Source of the DNA: a virus
Lineage: Duplodnaviria > Heunggongvirae > Uroviricota > Caudoviricetes
Virus record (IMG/VR): IMGVR_UViG_2713896736_000008
Direction: 5' to 3' (one strand)
Length of the DNA stretch: 6,277 bases
The notes under the pieces: generated by a model
Seen by the model: only the letters and a program-made list of their open reading frames with translations
What the model was told of the DNA's origin: nothing
Database searches by the model: none
Program-made: the position numbers and the translations under genes
Shown: positions 26-6,277 of the stretch, in pieces
Layout: the number at the start of each line of letters is the position of its first letter
How positions within the stretch are numbered: the first letter of the stretch is position 1

Positions 26-49
26 TGGTCATCAAATGACCAGTTTTTT
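25..49. terminator. Candidate bidirectional intrinsic terminator overlapping the int stop codon
   Basis: Perfect 8-bp stem CTGGTCAT (25-32) / ATGACCAG (36-43) with 3-nt loop CAA, preceded by AAAA (21-24) and followed by TTTTTT (44-49), so either strand's transcript has a hairpin plus U-tract. The int stop codon (32-34) lies inside the stem-loop. Confidence 0.5.
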
Positions 50-1162
50 CCATTCCTTACCGCGTGCGTCGTTGTAAATATCGGTCATTTTTTGATTCGA
101 ATGGCCTAGCAAAATTTTGGTATCAACCCCCTGCTCTCTGAACAATCGCTCTGATAAAGATCTCTGCTCATGGAAAGAGGGAGGGGTGCCATTAGCACGC
201 CAGTTGTAATCCACAGAATCCCGGGCTTTTTTAAATGCAACGGTTAATGTTGCTGGCTTAACCATCCCGCCGCGCTTAGCTGTCCCTTTCGCGTGATGGT
301 GGTGCAATAGCCACGGACTAAGAACGCAATCGCGGCAGGATGACACCACATCATCCAGGGTGAGATTTAATTTATCGCAACGCAGAGCCAGAGGGATGGC
401 AATCCGGGTTCCTGTTTTTTGCTGTTCGACATGAAGATAACCATCCCGGATATCCGAAAATTGCATTTTGCAAATATCTGAAAGGCGCTGGCCTGTCATC
501 AGTGCCAGCAGCATACCGCGCTGTAAAAAGTAACCATCCTTTTCCGCTGCGTTATAAATCATCATCCACTCATCAAAAGTCAGTCGCTGTCTTGATATCC
601 GCACCTGCGGTTTTTTTGCCGATTCTGCAGGGTTAAAGCCTGGCGGGACATCGCCCGTTTGCTGAGCTTCCCGGAAAACATCGATCAGTACTTTCCTGAA
701 AATTTGTCCCATTCTGTTATGTCCTCTGGCCTTGTACTCTTCCAGTACTGATACCACATCTTTTACGGTTATGGCATCTAACGGTCTGGTGCCAAAACGT
801 TCATCAAATACCCTGAGAGGGGCCGCTTTCTGTTTCAGCGTGTTGAGTTTGATCTCGCCGTTTTCATATCTTTCCTGTTGAATTTTTCTGTAATTATTCA
901 GAAAAATGGTAACGGTTGATGAACCGCCGGTATCACTAATAATTTTCTCCTGCAGACTGAGCATTTGTTCCATTTGCTGCCGGGCAAGACGGCTGTTCGC
1001 TTCTGCTGCAATAGTTTCTGCCAGTTTCTGGTCAATACTGCCGAGACCGTGATTTTTGCCTGTTATGGGATGCCTGTAACGCCAGTAAACTTTGTTATTT
1101 CTTTTGTCAAAATACGGAGATAATCCCGGAACATCGGTTTTATATTTTCGCGGGCGCGCCAT
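32..1162 (-). CDS. int: Lambda-family tyrosine integrase (site-specific recombinase), 376 aa
   Basis: Full-length ORF. Translation aligns by eye along its length with lambda Int (e.g. RQRLTFDEWMMIYNAAEKDGYFL...TGQRLSDICKMQFSDIRDGYLHVEQQKTGTRIAIPLAL vs lambda RSRLTADEYLKIYQAAESS...TGQRVGDLCEMKWSDIVDGYLYVEQSKTGVKIAIPTAL). Catalytic-type residues present: Arg in TGQR, His-x-x-Arg in FHEQRS, His in LLGHSNQ, and the C-terminal Tyr in MTDIYNDARG. Confidence 0.93.
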   Translation of the reverse strand: MARPRKYKTDVPGLSPYFDKRNNKVYWRYRHPITGKNHGLGSIDQKLAETIAAEANSRLARQQMEQMLSLQEKIISDTGGSSTVTIFLNNYRKIQQERYENGEIKLNTLKQKAAPLRVFDERFGTRPLDAITVKDVVSVLEEYKARGHNRMGQIFRKVLIDVFREAQQTGDVPPGFNPAESAKKPQVRISRQRLTFDEWMMIYNAAEKDGYFLQRGMLLALMTGQRLSDICKMQFSDIRDGYLHVEQQKTGTRIAIPLALRCDKLNLTLDDVVSSCRDCVLSPWLLHHHHAKGTAKRGGMVKPATLTVAFKKARDSVDYNWRANGTPPSFHEQRSLSERLFREQGVDTKILLGHSNQKMTDIYNDARGKEWKKLVI

Positions 1163-1388
1163 CTTCCAGTATCCTCTTCAAAGCAGGGTGATCTGTGGCG
1201 ATCACCTCCGGCTTGTTTACCATTCCGACAAAGCGAGCTTGCGGATCCACTCGCCAGCGTCTTCCAACTTTTTTGGGGAGAGGAAATATCATTCCGGCTT
1301 TAGCGTATTTACTTAACGTACTCGGAGTAGGGACCGGTTCACTGAATTCCTCTTTTGCCCACTCAGTGAGCAGAATAAGTCTTGCCAT
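1140..1388 (-). CDS. xis: Excisionase (Xis-like), 82 aa
   Basis: Small ORF directly upstream of int and overlapping its start by 23 nt, as xis/int do in lambda. Sequence pattern LILLTEWAKEE...AGMIFPLPKKVGRRWRV resembles lambda Xis (LTLQEWNARQ...CRIFPPPVKDGREY). The ribosome-binding site is weak. Confidence 0.78.
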   Translation of the reverse strand: MARLILLTEWAKEEFSEPVPTPSTLSKYAKAGMIFPLPKKVGRRWRVDPQARFVGMVNKPEVIATDHPALKRILEDGAPAKI

Positions 1389-1452: not shown

Positions 1453-3073
1453 TTAAAAATCAGCCTGATTCGGGATCAGTTTTTGCCAGATAACTGAAAC
1501 GTATTTTGCCTGGTAACGGGCGTCATCAAGTGCATTATGGCGCTCACCTTCGAATGGAATAGCCGTTCTGGCATCGAAGTCTATGGCTTTCCCCAGCTCA
1601 ACGATTGTGCGTACATCGCGATCGTTGTAGTAACGCCACGGGCAGGGGATCCCCTGCCGTTCGTATGAACGGCGCAAAATCGTGTTGTCGAAGTTGGCTC
1701 CATTTCCCCAGACCTGAACAAAAAATTCACCGGAGTTTTCGTCGATAAATTCCCGCAATTGTAATAGTGCATCATCTAACGGGATTTCATCGGTCATAAT
1801 GGCAGATTGCGCTTCGCGTGATTGCTTAAGCCACCATTTAATGGTGTCCCGATCAATGACCCCGCCAGCAGTTTCCAGATCGATAGTCTTACTAAATTCC
1901 GGTCCCATATCTCCGGTTTGCGGATCGAAAAATATTGCACCTATTGAGATGATCGGGGCATCAGGATTTTTTCCCATGGTTTCAAGGTCGATCATTAGAT
2001 GGTCACACGTCCTGCTGGTGGATGTGATTTCTTGATGACCGTTCACCTTAATTGAGTGATCTGCCGTCTCGCCAGTTTCATTATCGCTATCGTGATGCTG
2101 ATTGCCGTCAGTGTTCTCCTTGTGTGGATGTTCAGCGCCTTCCATTTCCTCCGGATCATCTTCCTGAACTTCAACCTGATACTCTTCATCGAATGTTTCC
2201 TGGTATGTTGCGTCGCCCATCACCGCGCCACAATCAGGGCAGTTGCCGCCGCCGGTCTGACCGCAGGCGGTGCAGACTTTTTCCGGTTCCTGTTGCGCTA
2301 CTGGCTCAGGTTGTTTCGTTTCTGGCTCGTTTTGTTGCGTATTTGGGCTGTTTTGTTCCGCTTTCTGGTCGTTCTGTTCCGTTTCTTGCTGGTTCTGGTT
2401 CACAGAATCGCGGGTTTCAATCCCCTTCACCCATTTCGGATCATTCGGGTCGCTAATCCCTGCAACAAATTCACCACGTGATGCGGCGAGCAACTGATTG
2501 GCGTCAGGCTGGCTGATATTGGCTGCCTGCATAATTTTCTTTACTTCGTCAGCGGTAACTTTTACCGGTTCTGGTTGTTCAGAATTTTGTGCGGTATTTG
2601 CATTTTGCGGTAAGCCTGTGTATGTGCCATTTTTTCGGGCAAAATATTCTTCTTTTGTGATTTCAGTAGCCCCGGCAGCCAGCGCCTTATCCAGACCAGA
2701 AAGTTTGTTTGCGCGACCGTATTTTTCGCCATCCTTGTCGGTGAAGAGGAAGTAGAACGGCCCCTCACGTTCTACAGATGGTTCGACTTCCACTTTGCAT
2801 TCGGTTTTTTCGTTGTCTGGAATTGCCGTTTCCACTGCATCAGTTTCTGGTACTGGCGACGAGAGAGTATCAGTTGCGCTCTGATTTGTTCCTTCATCTT
2901 CAAACACGCCCTTTGTAGTCAGGTATTCAGTAATGTATTTGTTCAGTGCCACAGGGTCTTTGTGAATGTCGATCGGACGTTCACGGACAAGGCCAAAAAT
3001 AGTCTGGCGGTCGTAGCGAAGGGCATCAGGCTGTTTGCGCATTGATGCCGAGATACGCTTCCAGTCTTCGCGG
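1453..3073 (-). CDS. RecE-family (exodeoxyribonuclease VIII-like) protein with C-terminal DnaQ-like DEDDh 3'-5' exonuclease domain; partial, 5' end lies in the N-masked region (about 539 codons visible)
   Basis: Long minus-strand ORF ending at the stop at 1453-1455. The central part (QLLAASRGEFVAGISDPNDPKWVKGIETRDSVNQNQQETEQNDQKAEQNSP...CTACGQTGGGNCPDCGAVMGDATYQETFDEEYQVE...PEEMEGAEHPH) matches, by recollection, the non-catalytic middle of Rac RecE. The C-terminal ~185 aa (about nt 1456-2010) carry DEDDh motifs: MIDLET (Asp-x-Glu), WGNGANFDNTIL (Asp), HNALDDARYQAKY (His...Asp). The 21-aa N-terminal extension the ORF track adds at 3480-3543 is discarded because that stretch is in the coding frame of the upstream gene. 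Confidence 0.85.
2014..2021 (+). other. Second Chi octamer 5'-GCTGGTGG-3', inside the exonuclease coding region, same orientation as the first
   Basis: Exact match read directly from the sequence. Confidence 0.5.
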
Positions 3074-3479
3074 NNNNNNNNNNNNNNNNNNNNNNNNNNN
3101 NNNNNNNNNNNNNNNNNNNNNNNNNNNNNNNNNNNNNNNNNNNNNNNNNNNNNNNNNNNNNNNNNNNNNNNNNNNNNNNNNNNNNNNNNNNNNNNNNNNN
3201 NNNNNNNNNNNNNNNNNNNNNNNNNNNNNNNNNNNNNNNNNNNNNNNNNNNNNNNNNNNNNNNNNNNNNNNNNNNNNNNNNNNNNNNNNNNNNNNNNNNN
3301 NNNNNNNNNNNNNNNNNNNNNNNNNNNNNNNNNNNNNNNNNNNNNNNNNNNNNNNNNNNNNNNNNNNNNNNNNNNNNNNNNNNNNNNNNNNNNNNNNNNN
3401 NNNNNNNNNNNNNNNNNNNNNNNNNNNNNNNNNNNNNNNNNNNNNNNNNNNNNNNNNNNNNNNNNNNNNNNNNNNNNNN
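3074..3479. other. 406-nt run of N (masked or unresolved sequence)
   Basis: Read directly. It hides the 3' end of the ORF at 3480-4051 and the 5' end of the exonuclease ORF. Every X run in the six-frame track comes from this block. Confidence 1.
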
Positions 3480-4051
3480 TCTGCCTGAATTTCGGGCCAT
3501 TTGGCACCAGGCTTACATTTATGCTTAACCCACCCGATGGCATGCAGCTTAAGCTCCGGATACATGGCGTTAACTTCTGGCATTTTCATCAACGCTTCAA
3601 CGATATGTCCGTCGAATGTTGCCATGTCTTCCTGCAACAATTCCTGCGCGCTAATCACCATATCAACGGTGATGTTTTCACATGTGTCGAACTTAACCAT
3701 GACAGCGTTCTGTACTTCAGGGGCCAGCTTGTCAAAAGCGACGTTCATCGGATCGGATTCAGTCTCAACCGGGACAAAGGAAGCAGCCCCCTCATCCCAG
3801 CGGTTTTCCTGCATATATTCAGCATCCCAGGAATCGAGGGCAGGGCGGGGTATACCGGGTTTATCCTCGCAAACAAGAAATTTATAAGCGCAGTCCTGAG
3901 CAGCCGGATAATGCTCCAGGAATTGCCAGTGAAATTTTGCGCGGGCGCGACGTTCATCACCGGCTTCAATGGCAGTGGCTACAGCGACTGCACCTTCTTC
4001 CTTTATTGCCTGTTCGTCCGGAATGGCGGCGCAAATAAAGACTTTACTCAT
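3480..4051 (-). CDS. Hypothetical prophage protein, at least 190 aa, 3' end hidden in the N run; positional equivalent of Qin ydfE (equivalence is tentative)
   Basis: ATG at 4051-4049 with GAGG Shine-Dalgarno 9 nt upstream (AATGAGGTAAAACAAA-ATG). Protein-like translation (MSKVFICAAIPDEQAIKEEGAVAVATAIEAGDERRARAKFHWQFLEHYPAAQD...). Sits immediately downstream (in transcription order) of ydfD/dicB. Reading frame differs from the exonuclease ORF, so with the N run at its stated length these are two genes. Confidence 0.7.
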
Positions 4052-4143
4052 TTTGTTTTACCTCATTACAGATTTAAGGGTGAACAAATCCCTGCCATTG
4101 CTGGCATATAAGAATGAAATCGGATGTTTATTACGGAACTGTT

Positions 4144-4335
4144 TTAAAGACCTGCCGGGATTTCGTTATTATCATGGTGAATAACTTTATCGACAGGGTA
4201 ACAGTTACCGGGAATTTTCTGTTCGGTTGCTGCAGTCACACACTCCTGCATTGTCCTGTGAACACTGACTGCAATATCAACTGGCTCTCCGGAAACAAGA
4301 AAAACTGTCAGAACAAGTGCAAATGCTGTATTCAT
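4144..4335 (-). CDS. ydfD: YdfD-like small membrane (lysis) protein, 63 aa
   Basis: ATG at 4335-4333 overlaps the dicB stop TGA (4334-4332) as ATGA, implying translational coupling. N-terminus MNTAFALVLTVFLVSG is a single hydrophobic helix. Size and position directly downstream of dicB match ydfD of the Qin prophage. AAGGA Shine-Dalgarno 8 nt upstream. The track's longer 81-aa form (start 4389) and an ATG at 4344 are alternative starts. Confidence 0.68.
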   Translation of the reverse strand: MNTAFALVLTVFLVSGEPVDIAVSVHRTMQECVTAATEQKIPGNCYPVDKVIHHDNNEIPAGL

Positions 4336-4520
4336 TGCCAGCATCCTTTTTGTATCGGACGTAAACGGGCCAGCATTGAAAGAATGCATATTTTATTTAA
4401 TAACTCCCGTTCGTGTTTTCTCTTGTTAATGGCATCTTCAGTAAATACAGGGTTACTGATAGTGACACCAATTTCAAAACAACCTTCAGACGTATTAACG
4501 TTTGGTAATAACGTTTCCAT
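4332..4520 (-). CDS. dicB: Cell-division inhibitor DicB homolog, 62 aa
   Basis: Translation METLLPNVNTSEGCFEIGVTISNPVFTEDAINKRKHERELLNKICILSMLARLRPIQKGCWQ is near-identical, by recollection, to E. coli K-12 Qin DicB (MKTLLPNVNTSEGCFEIGVTISNPVFTEDAINKRKQERELLNKICIVSMLARLRLMPKGCAQ). GAGGA Shine-Dalgarno 7 nt upstream of the ATG at 4520-4518. The track ORF 4332..4625 extends this frame upstream to a GTG. Confidence 0.88.
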   Translation of the reverse strand: METLLPNVNTSEGCFEIGVTISNPVFTEDAINKRKHERELLNKICILSMLARLRPIQKGCWQ

Positions 4521-4689
4521 TATCGCGTCCTCAACAATGAATTTTGTGATGCGGTGCCTGGTGCCTCCAGGTGACGTTAACCAGTTAACAATTAACGCCG
4601 GATACAGAGAATCCACCCATAACACTGTTTTTAGCTTTAACTGTTCCGCGTGCGCTCAGCCGCATTCACTGCATCACAAAATTCACTTT

Positions 4690-4745
4690 AAAAAGGGCGG
4701 ACATCAGTTCATGGGCAAACAGATGCCGCCAAACGTCACCAGAAA
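4690..4745 (-). ncRNA. dicF: DicF small RNA homolog (about 56 nt) ending in an intrinsic terminator
   Basis: Minus strand reads UUUCUGGUGACGUUUGGCGGCAUCUGUUUGCCCAUGAACUGAUGUCCGCCCUUUUU. The 5' part UUUCUGGUGACGUUUGGCGG matches DicF as recalled from K-12. The 3' part forms a 9-bp stem with one bulged A (GGCGG(A)CAUC at 4696-4705 paired with GAUGCCGCC at 4722-4730 on the + strand) followed by U5 (4690-4694). Location just upstream of dicB matches the dicF-dicB arrangement. Confidence 0.72.
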
Positions 4746-4746
4746 A

Positions 4747-5078
4747 TTGATAACAGAGGGCGTTGCAGCGGGGTTGTCACTTAAGCGTATGGTCAACCTG
4801 ACAACCCGGTGTCCTCAACGGGGAAGGAATAACCCCGCCATACTTACCGCTGCGCCATTTCGCGGAGTGCCACAACCGGAAGCGCACGGTCGACGAAAAT
4901 TTAACGACAGGCTATCTATGAACCAGCAACCTCGCCGTGCGCTTTCGCGTTATGCTCTGACTTTTCAGAGAAATATCCTTTCAGTAAACTGTCAGTGCCG
5001 GATGTTCACCCGTGTCCGGCGCACGCACTCCACTTCACCCGTGGAGAACTCCTTAATTACCAACCCTCAGGAGGGTGA
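4747..5078 (-). promoter_or_regulatory. GC-rich, ORF-poor, hairpin-dense segment upstream of dicF; candidate structured precursor/leader RNA or regulatory region
   Basis: No minus-strand ORF with a usable start; stops are dense in all three minus frames. Hairpins on the + strand numbering: 4771-4779/4799-4807 (9 bp), 4819-4823/4833-4837 (5 bp), 4876-4889/4935-4948 (13 bp with one G-U), 4995-5004/5013-5022 (10 bp with G-U pairs), 5028-5033/5041-5046 (6 bp). Short motifs repeat within it (see findings). Confidence 0.4.
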
Positions 5079-5312
5079 ATGTTAAAATCAACTCTTATTG
5101 CTAAATGCCTTTATCAAAATCGCATGGTAAGCAGCATTTCAATAGGCGAGTCTGCAGTTAAAAGTATTTTCGAAGAGTACTTTCCCGGGCATGATTTTAA
5201 TAAATGGAATACCAAATTACCGCCAGCAGTTTCAACGCGTATTCTGAAAGCAACCGAAAGAGCAAGTACAATTCGCGTTAACTATTTCATTAAAGATTTG
5301 TGGGATCTTTGA
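5079..5312 (+). CDS. Hypothetical small protein, 77 aa, on the strand opposite the surrounding operon
   Basis: ATG at 5079 preceded by a strong Shine-Dalgarno AGGAGG (5069-5074, 4-nt spacer). AT-rich codon usage contrasts sharply with the GC-rich sequence immediately upstream. Its 3' end overlaps the convergent 135-aa gene by 23 nt. No family recognised. Confidence 0.55.
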   Translation: MLKSTLIAKCLYQNRMVSSISIGESAVKSIFEEYFPGHDFNKWNTKLPPAVSTRILKATERASTIRVNYFIKDLWDL

Positions 5313-5697
5313 TATCCACAGAGCCTAAAGTATGTGCATATGGATGTGCTATTATGCGCCCTCGCAGATTTGCATCATTTTCTAAATTCACTGAACGAAA
5401 CAGGGCATCAACAAGGCTCTGTACAATGCAAAGGCAATCGAAGACTGTCGCCGTTTCTGTTTTGATTGATGAAAGAACATGGCCATTCACGCAAACAGAA
5501 ATTACCCGTTTATTAACATCGCTTTCCTGCTTTTGATTATCAGAACCATATAGCCCAGAAAAAGCATTGCGCACATTACGAACCATATTATCGATGGTTT
5601 CTTTTTCTGCGGTACTAAGGTCAAGAGTAGCCAGTTGTGAACGAACTATATTCGATGCCATTTCCTGTAATGGCGTTGGTAAATCTTTAAATTCCAT
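5290..5697 (-). CDS. Hypothetical protein, 135 aa
   Basis: ATG at 5697-5695 with GAGG Shine-Dalgarno about 7 nt upstream, only 22 nt downstream of the 72-aa gene stop (operon-like). No helix-turn-helix or other motif recognised. Confidence 0.65.
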   Translation of the reverse strand: MEFKDLPTPLQEMASNIVRSQLATLDLSTAEKETIDNMVRNVRNAFSGLYGSDNQKQESDVNKRVISVCVNGHVLSSIKTETATVFDCLCIVQSLVDALFRSVNLENDANLRGRIIAHPYAHTLGSVDIKDPTNL

Positions 5698-5719
5698 TAT
5701 TAGCCTCGTTGGTTAGCTA

Positions 5720-5938
5720 TTAACGTGGGTATGTAATCATTCTGGCAATGCTTAATGCCGCTGCTTTTTCCAGATTGGTGATATCCTGCTCCAGAGCGGA
5801 CAGATTTTCAGCCTGCTTAGCCCTGGCTTCATTGGCCCATTTCAGGTCCTGCACCGCCTTAATTTTCTGGTGCATCCACTCATAAAGTTCATCATCGGTA
5901 TAGTCTGGCGCGATGATGACGGGGTCTCGTTTCTGCAT
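5720..5938 (-). CDS. Hypothetical small protein, 72 aa, predicted helical/coiled-coil
   Basis: ATG at 5938-5936 with a strong Shine-Dalgarno AAGGAG 4 nt upstream. First gene of the leftward gene string in this window. Occupies the position of the small ydfA/B/C-type ORFs of Qin, but its sequence is not confidently recognised. Confidence 0.7.
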   Translation of the reverse strand: MQKRDPVIIAPDYTDDELYEWMHQKIKAVQDLKWANEARAKQAENLSALEQDITNLEKAAALSIARMITYPR

Positions 5939-5970
5939 GTCGGCTCCTTGTGGTTAGCGTTGCCTGCTTT

Positions 5971-5998
5971 TTAACCACGTCAGGCGAGGTGGTATCCT
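5971..5998 (+). promoter_or_regulatory. Candidate sigma70 promoter for the zinc-ribbon gene in the divergent intergenic region
   Basis: TTAACC (5971-5976), 16-nt spacer, TATCCT (5993-5998), about 35 nt upstream of the ATG at 6032. Hexamers are weak (4/6 each); by eye only. Confidence 0.3.
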
Positions 5999-6031
5999 CT
6001 GAGGGGTCTGTTACTCGAGAGGAAATTGGTT

Positions 6032-6232
6032 ATGAATACAATCAAGTTTTCTTGCCCAGAATGTGGTGGCGAAGTCTTTGACACATCCTTTAAGCCGCAG
6101 GGCTCTGACAGTTTCGCGGGAGCCATCTGCAAAAATTGTGGTCACCTTGTAACTGAAGATGAGTCCTCGCAGTTCGATGACGAAATCGTTGACAATATCT
6201 TCGGTGCACTCACCAGAGACTTTCTGAAGTAA
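6032..6232 (+). CDS. Small zinc-ribbon protein with acidic C-terminal tail, 66 aa
   Basis: ATG at 6032 with GAGAGG Shine-Dalgarno 9 nt upstream (the track begins at an in-frame TTG at 6026). Two CxxC pairs (CPEC and CKNC, 22 residues apart) followed by an acidic tail EDESSQFDDEIVDNIF. Divergently transcribed from the 72-aa gene. Confidence 0.65.
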   Translation: MNTIKFSCPECGGEVFDTSFKPQGSDSFAGAICKNCGHLVTEDESSQFDDEIVDNIFGALTRDFLK

Positions 6233-6277
6233 AGGCGCATACCGCTTAGTTACCGCTCTGATAACTCTTACCTGCCC

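Follow-up and report, generated by a model that had tools for sequence, protein, structure and literature searches.

[quoted passage not shown] The K-12 small RNA DicF pairs through its 3′ region with the ribosome-binding site of ftsZ; control of ftsZ is lost in the 3′ mutants DicF9 and DicF23, whereas the 5′ mutant DicF3 keeps it and loses control of xylR and pykA. The dicF-dicB RNA of K-12 has been described as a target of RNase III processing. Downstream, K-12 DicB blocks cell division in a MinC-dependent manner and phage entry in a ManYZ-dependent manner, and K-12 YdfD acts via IspG. Qin has, as the original prediction held, a decayed and IS-interrupted end, where ydfE is a pseudogene with IS2E, and insD7 and intQ are pseudogenes as well. 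In Shigella phage 75/02 Stx and in other Stx and lambdoid phages, a terminator hairpin at the DicF position and an STnc100-like leader are found upstream of kil. An "intact version" of the dicB locus is already represented in phage genomes: Escherichia phage Tritos carries CI/Cro, three small ORFs, DicF, DicB, YdfD, exonuclease, excisionase, and integrase, and phage mEp460 has at least dicB.

We analysed a stretch of 6277 nt from a tailed phage or prophage (IMG/VR record IMGVR_UViG_2713896736_000008; hereafter the window). Positions 4144–4745 on its minus strand represent, with a probability that we put at roughly 0.8, the part of an early-left operon that holds dicF, dicB, and ydfD, in a lambdoid prophage integrated at ompW in the E. 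coli O157:H7 lineage. The coordinates originally proposed for the module are exact, with the ydfD stop at 4144, the 5′ end of DicF at 4745, and all three elements on the minus strand. Over all unmasked bases, the window is 99.9% identical to O157:H7 chromosomes, and 269 records match the whole window at an identity of at least 99%. The int gene of the O157:H7 strain TW14359 lies 45 bp from ompW, and genes for a DicA-like repressor and a Cro-like protein lie in this strain outside the window, ~1.2 kb to the right of its end; a DicA-like repressor gene just upstream of the operon is also a feature of relatives. In strain Sakai, the prophage at yciD, the old name of ompW, is Sp9. Judged by its integration site, the window prophage is of the Sakai Sp9 type, and "PPompW" is the same architecture as deposited.

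The gene order of the window is that of Qin. The upstream gene of the operon is ydfC (5720–5938, minus strand; annotated as ydfC in TW14359), with 68 of its 72 residues the same as in K-12 YdfC. Between ydfC and the leader lies an insert of 634 bp with two ORFs (5066–5699), which is missing from K-12, and this is followed by the untranslated leader of 320 nt itself (4746–5065, minus strand), which adjoins dicF and from whose RNA DicF would be cut out. The DNA of Qin and of the window is 94% identical over 3480–5065 and 5700–5938, i.e., over ydfC, the leader, the 5′ half of dicF, the dicF-dicB spacer, dicB, ydfD, and the ydfE-like start of the exonuclease gene. On the plus strand, antisense to ydfD, dicB, dicF, and the leader, runs an ORF of 323 aa (4114–5085); stops or frame changes interrupt it in K-12, E. 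albertii, Tritos, and others, and it was dismissed as a chance ORF.

The locus is already known: it is annotated in many O157:H7 genomes, and temperate phages with this gene order have been sequenced. With near-identical annotated O157:H7 prophages and the gene order of Tritos at hand, it is therefore not new. Tritos is 95% identical to the window over the module; unlike the window, it has a K-12-type DicF, no two-ORF insert (the alignment breaks at 5065/5681), and a different immunity region. PPompW_14040 has the order of the window (dicA/dicC, ydfC, the two-ORF cassette, dicB, a ydfD-like gene, exonuclease, xisE, and intE) and is 92–98% identical to it, but its DicF hairpin is of the K-12 type and its exonuclease gene is frameshifted by a 4-bp deletion. 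The idea that the window might hold a newly functional version of the locus fails on the comparison with K-12, where dicF, dicB, and ydfD are intact and active already and only the flanking arm differs.

The assignments of DicB and YdfD were upheld by profile scores above the curated cut-offs. DicB (62 aa; 4332–4520, minus strand) scored 127.4 bits against PF05358 (cut-off 27) and 132.7 bits against NF049927 (cut-off 100), with the Pfam and NCBIfam matches covering residues 1–62 of 62. It is identical to K-12 DicB at 56 of the 62 residues, and four of the about 6–7 substitutions (L55P, M56I, P57Q, and A61W) all fall within the C-terminal eight residues, which can be deleted from DicB with its toxicity kept. 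The protein starts with METLLPNV, so that K2E distinguishes it from K-12 DicB and L5 is retained; position 2 tolerates A, G, and R in published tests, and L5 is critical. The N-terminus and the residues up to -8 from the C-terminus, which division inhibition needs, are present. YdfD (63 aa, ending in IPAGL; 4144–4335, minus strand) scored 88 bits against DUF1482 (PF07358, cut-off 25), with an alignment over residues 4–61. It is full length and has 58 of 63 residues, including both Cys, in common with K-12 YdfD (five residues differ). Lysis by YdfD requires the full length, and the loss of even one terminal residue weakens it.

The dicB stop overlaps the ydfD start in an ATGA at 4332–4335, as read from the sequence; the coupling that had been singled out in the window is there, but it does not distinguish the window from K-12, where dicB (5610–5798 of locus L002) and ydfD (5795–5986) share the same 4-nt overlap. 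PADLOC scans of the small proteins of the window returned no defence-system match. By analogy with K-12, both proteins should be functional, DicB via MinC and ManYZ and YdfD via IspG.

The window was also thought to have a complete int-xis-exonuclease arm, which holds for int and xis. Both are full-length ORFs with full-length profile matches. The int gene (32–1162, minus strand) encodes a lambda-type tyrosine integrase of 376 aa, specific to the ompW site, in which Pfam finds both the N-terminal arm-binding domain (Arm-DNA-bind_1, PF09003, 77.7 bits) and the C-terminal catalytic domain (Phage_integrase, PF00589, 61.3 bits). Its translation contains the motifs GQRLSD, QQKTG, HEQRS, LLGHS, and DIYND, which we take, by comparison with lambda Int, to carry the catalytic residues R-K-H-R-H-Y. 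The xis gene (1140–1388, minus strand) encodes an excisionase of 82 aa (Pfam Exc, PF07825, 31.9 bits; phrog_629, "excisionase", E = 4e-35).

The exonuclease gene (1453–4051, minus strand) is masked by a run of 406 N at 3074–3479, and the ORFs that flank the run (1453–3543 and 3026–4051) are one base out of register. The closest genomes, TW14359 among them, have 279 bp between the same flanks and a single ORF of 823 aa, and the surplus of 127 N gives exactly the one-base frame offset seen in the window. The N run is probably not true to length, and the gene is probably intact beneath the mask. Its product matches phrog_2082 ("exonuclease") in the N-terminal part, which is homologous to K-12 YdfE, and PF16473 (227 bits) in the C-terminal part, which is an Rv2179c-like 3′-5′ exonuclease domain and presumably belongs to the DEDD family. 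The homology to ydfE extends into the masked part and ends at the IS2E junction of K-12. Against the RecE/exodeoxyribonuclease VIII model NF007259, the protein reached 278.7 bits, under the cut-off of 1269, in a match restricted to residues 452–625; the name "Exonuclease VIII" is used loosely in phage records.

Where Qin has ydfE with IS2E and the insD7 and intQ pseudogenes, the arm of the window continues with exonuclease, xis, and int. An alignment to K-12, proposed as a way to find what Qin has lost, gave a different answer: a tblastn comparison detected no similarity between the int of the window and intQ, and because the two are unrelated, the arm of the window is, as far as the alignments go, a different mosaic module rather than the part that Qin lost. 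For the prophage type, a working integration arm is supported because Sp9 was scored Int+ and Xis+ and because its circular form, arising from attL x attR recombination, was seen by PCR even without mitomycin C. Sp9 DNA was furthermore found in packaged, DNase-resistant form, and Sp9 was scored as defective in its repressor (cleavage), in general recombination, and in head functions.

The DicF of the window (4690–4745, minus strand) has the same place in the early-left operon as K-12 DicF, with ydfC on one side and dicB on the other. Its match to Rfam RF00039 (4695–4744) covers the full model from 1 to 52 with E = 3.3e-7; the 43.5 bits fall below the gathering score of 48, but the assignment holds. 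Nucleotides 1–20 (UUUCUGGUGACGUUUGGCGG), the single-stranded 5′ seed, are the same as in K-12. The two RNAs differ in the hairpin of the 3′ half, GGCGGCAUCUGUUUGCCCAUGAACUGAUGUCCGCC with a U5 tail in the window as against GGCGGUAUCAGUUUUACUCCGUGACUGCUCUGCCGCC in K-12. The loop of the window hairpin, UGCCCAUG, has no ACUCC, so that, against the original claim, this RNA is not an "intact" DicF by K-12 standards. The terminator hairpin has a predicted energy of -17.3 kcal/mol and is followed directly by U5; a simple terminator scan missed it owing to an internal mismatch.

The duplex of K-12 DicF with ftsZ from -35 to +25 has an energy of -37.6 kcal/mol, which is equalled by 1.8% of shuffled sequences. 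The corresponding duplex of the window DicF has -24.1 kcal/mol, equalled by 70% of shuffles, i.e., it does not stand out from shuffled sequence. In an O157:H7 strain with the window allele, the initiation region of ftsZ is unchanged (100% identity), and the 5′ half of the window DicF retains some complementarity to ftsZ at about +9 to +24. Accessibility-corrected energies had implausibly large opening penalties and gave no usable ranking; they were dropped, and plain complementarity and the published mutants were used. Repression of ftsZ, which the original prediction had carried over from DicF in general, is probably absent in the window copy because the ftsZ-pairing 3′ region has been replaced. 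The targets of the 5′ seed (xylR, pykA, and perhaps manX) would be kept. A pairing of the seed with codons 6–9 of dicB (10 bp, -13.6 kcal/mol, also seen in minimum-energy folds) was considered and rejected, as 22% of shuffled seeds equal it.

The window allele of DicF is a minority one: of 5426 complete E. coli genomes, 289 carry it and 3945 carry the K-12 type. Judged from the listed records, the carriers of the window allele belong mostly to the O157:H7 and O55:H7 lineage. In one O157:H7 genome, in which copies were counted as places, the conserved 5′ region was found four times, once in the window allele and twice in the K-12 type; this fits the four DicF copies reported for EHEC. Melson and Kendall are said to have characterised these four EHEC copies in 2019. 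In an RNA-seq table for EDL933, four copies of DicF are listed, some with almost no reads.

A scan of IMG/VR with the DicF seed returned 117 copies, 114 of which keep ACUCC and two of which are the window allele. The same scan with the 3′ arm of the window hairpin returned 120 copies, most of them with unrelated 5′ sequences. When the usable copies were pooled, other seeds joined to the generic stem were found 75 times upstream of kil and 14 times upstream of dicB, and the DicF seed joined to this stem four times, each before dicB. The phages of the kil type share with the window the hairpin stem (GGCGG(A)CAUC...GAUGUCCGCC with a U tail), the early-left position, and the outer helix and hairpins of the spacer, but their 5′ single-stranded sequence is different and lacks the DicF seed, and they mostly have kil instead of dicB downstream. 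From these sequence comparisons, the most fitting description of the window DicF is a chimera that joins the DicF seed (nt 1–20) to the generic GGCGGCAUC...GAUGUCCGCC hairpin of other lambdoid phages.

In E. albertii, the DicF allele is identical within a region that is 86.5% identical overall. The non-coding block at 4456–5018 is 97–100% identical between E. albertii and the window, in contrast to 58–90% for the flanking coding DNA, and the leader at 4746–5065 is 97–100% identical as well. Such a pattern points to an RNA under constraint or else to a block that was exchanged recently.

We tentatively suggest that the natural chimera acts as an "ftsZ-blind" DicF, which may have kept its metabolic 5′-seed targets and lost division inhibition, and that the site upstream of dicB or kil may be a modular sRNA slot at which phages exchange seeds, hairpin loops, and the conserved STnc100-like leader. 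Should the allele spare ftsZ, nature would have supplied a separation-of-function variant, with which the metabolic and virulence roles of DicF could be told apart from division control. "DicF" copies are not interchangeable: treating the four EHEC copies as one regulator may mislead for the window allele, and so may annotating every DicF match as an inhibitor of ftsZ.

Against the loss of ftsZ repression stands the reading that the window DicF is equivalent to K-12 DicF and still represses ftsZ, via its conserved 5′ half on the early ftsZ coding region. We regard this as unlikely. Nucleotides 4–17 do pair with ftsZ at about +9 to +24 in the full-length K-12 duplex and are unchanged in the window, and the four EHEC copies are treated collectively as DicF orthologs in the literature; DicF9 and DicF23, however, lose ftsZ repression in K-12 despite an intact 5′ half, and DicF3, altered in its 5′ half, does not. 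The ACUCC loop in 114 of the 117 seed-bearing copies suggests that the loop is the selected element, and the unremarkable duplex energy of the window allele points in the same direction. A regulatory RNA might be doubted altogether, given the Rfam score below the gathering threshold, a generic type of hairpin that is joined at this site to many unrelated 5′ sequences, and the near absence of reads for some of the EDL933 copies. The dicF-like sequence would then be a mere intrinsic terminator or processing site rather than a trans-acting sRNA, and the allele a neutral product of recombination. The identity among the 289 E. coli carriers is uninformative here, as most of them belong to one clonal lineage. 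Such a reading is nonetheless distinctly improbable in view of the 100% conservation of the 20-nt seed, the hairpin and U5 tail that make a standard 3′ end of an Hfq-dependent sRNA, the identity of the allele in E. albertii next to coding DNA of 58–90% identity, and reports that O157:H7 makes four DicF orthologs when grown microaerobically.

That the module is instead a decayed remnant like K-12 Qin, with dicB, ydfD, or the integration genes inactivated, seems to us barely credible. The out-of-register exonuclease frames on either side of the mask, the functions for which Sp9 was scored as defective, and the frameshifted exonuclease of PPompW_14040 could all be read as signs of decay; yet none of dicB, ydfD, xis, and int is truncated, and each is matched by its profile over the full length; where the window is masked, the closest genomes carry 279 bp within a single exonuclease ORF of 823 aa; and circular Sp9 DNA has been detected experimentally.

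Transcription of the early-left operon would enter from the right of the window and proceed through ydfC, the two-ORF insert, the leader, DicF, the spacer, dicB, ydfD, exonuclease, and xis to int. If K-12 is a guide, RNase E would generate the 5′ end of DicF, and an intrinsic terminator of its own would set the 3′ end; the chimeric DicF lacks the ACUCC anti-Shine-Dalgarno loop that K-12 DicF applies to ftsZ. DicB would bind MinC and block Z-ring formation as well as ManYZ-dependent phage entry, and YdfD, translationally coupled to dicB via the ATGA, would inhibit IspG and lyse dividing cells, as expected from their K-12 counterparts.

The spacer between dicF and dicB, which is also the leader of dicB (4521–4689, minus strand; 169 nt), is structured, with a fold z of -4.9 relative to shuffles. 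An outer helix of 20 bp (4667–4686 with 4537–4556) encloses hairpins at 4651–4664, 4573–4599, and 4557–4571, and this long-range helix is shared with K-12 Qin. Nearly all of 51 distinct phage sequences keep the outer helix paired, and the stem at 4573–4599 has several two-sided compensatory changes among them; the window copy has one A-C mismatch in the outer helix. The spacer is a sub-threshold match to the Rfam family STnc100 (33.5 bits, gathering score 47), of which multiple copies are annotated and expressed in EDL933. The outer helix is likely an RNase III substrate, and the enzyme would be expected to cut this conserved 20-bp helix that brackets the spacer.

The spacer between DicF and dicB (4521-4689, minus strand) forms a conserved structured RNA, which consists of three hairpins and a 20-bp outer helix. 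One of the hairpins has a covarying stem and a loop (UUGUUAACUGG) that is kept in nearly all of 51 sequences. The spacer RNA is common to lambdoid phages, both those with dicB and those with kil directly downstream, and it matches Rfam STnc100 at a sub-threshold score. It is a likely site of RNase III processing. We also compared O157:H7 with Escherichia albertii (locus L006) over the surrounding region. The non-coding block from the start of dicB to upstream of dicF (4456-5018) is 97-100% identical between the two, whereas the coding DNA beside it (ydfD, the 3' part of dicB, and the exonuclease gene) is only 58-90% identical. Such high identity next to more divergent coding DNA means that either the RNA is under strong constraint or the block was exchanged recently by recombination.

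In many lambdoid phages, kil is preceded by a hairpin that has the stem of the DicF allele found in the window, but with different 5' single-stranded sequences (e.g., ...AACAACAUUGCUGUGUGUAG...). These hairpins at the DicF position, which were seen at 2501-2753 of L016 (Shigella phage 75/02 Stx) and in IMG/VR loci, appear to form a family of seed-variable sRNAs that have yet to be named. On the plus strand, a 323-codon open frame (4114-5085) lies opposite the entire module in antisense orientation; relatives do not conserve it, and we therefore rejected it as a chance ORF.

Relative to K-12, the window has 634 extra bp (5066-5699), located precisely between ydfC and the leader of dicF. The insert is likewise present in PPompW_14040, a related ompW-integrated prophage, but is absent from both K-12 and the temperate Escherichia phage Tritos. 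Its two ORFs are convergent and overlap by 23 bp, one encoding 77 aa (5079-5312, plus strand; phrog_10348) and the other 135 aa (5290-5697, minus strand; phrog_1363). Neither ORF had a match in Pfam, NCBIfam, or PADLOC. A second pair of ORFs, at 6032-6232 (plus strand) and 6011-6277 (minus strand, running off the window), is antisense with complete overlap, and there is family support for each: the plus-strand ORF encodes a 66-aa CxxC...CxxC protein (NCBIfam ECs_2282_CxxC, 57 bits, cut-off 37), and the minus-strand ORF a 99-aa hypothetical protein (phrog_21318, 199 bits). RefSeq annotates the 99-aa protein and not the 66-aa ORF. At least one annotation of this pair is probably wrong.

The exonuclease gene is interrupted by a run of 406 N (3074-3479), which corresponds to 279 bp in the closest genomes. 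As the window stands, the exonuclease frames on either side of this run are one base out of register, so the run is probably not length-true. An Rv2179c-like 3'-5' exoribonuclease domain (PF16473, 227 bits) lies at the end of the C-terminal part of the protein (1453-3072, minus strand), which also contains a long low-complexity linker rich in Q, E, and N, as well as a Cys-rich CxxC...CxxC segment. In these prophages the protein is named "exonuclease" or "exonuclease VIII"; its score of 278 bits falls far short of the RecE equivalog cut-off of 1269.

A 121-bp duplication arising from PPompW insertion is annotated in a related record, and its counterpart would fall just outside the window. Within the window, the left end (1-50) begins with the direct repeat cctctgcaaaa, present twice (1-11 and 14-24), and continues with a perfect hairpin (actggtcat-caa-atgaccagt) and then with a T run, which overlaps the int stop codon. 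This hairpin and T run at the prophage junction probably act as a terminator for the incoming ompW transcript.
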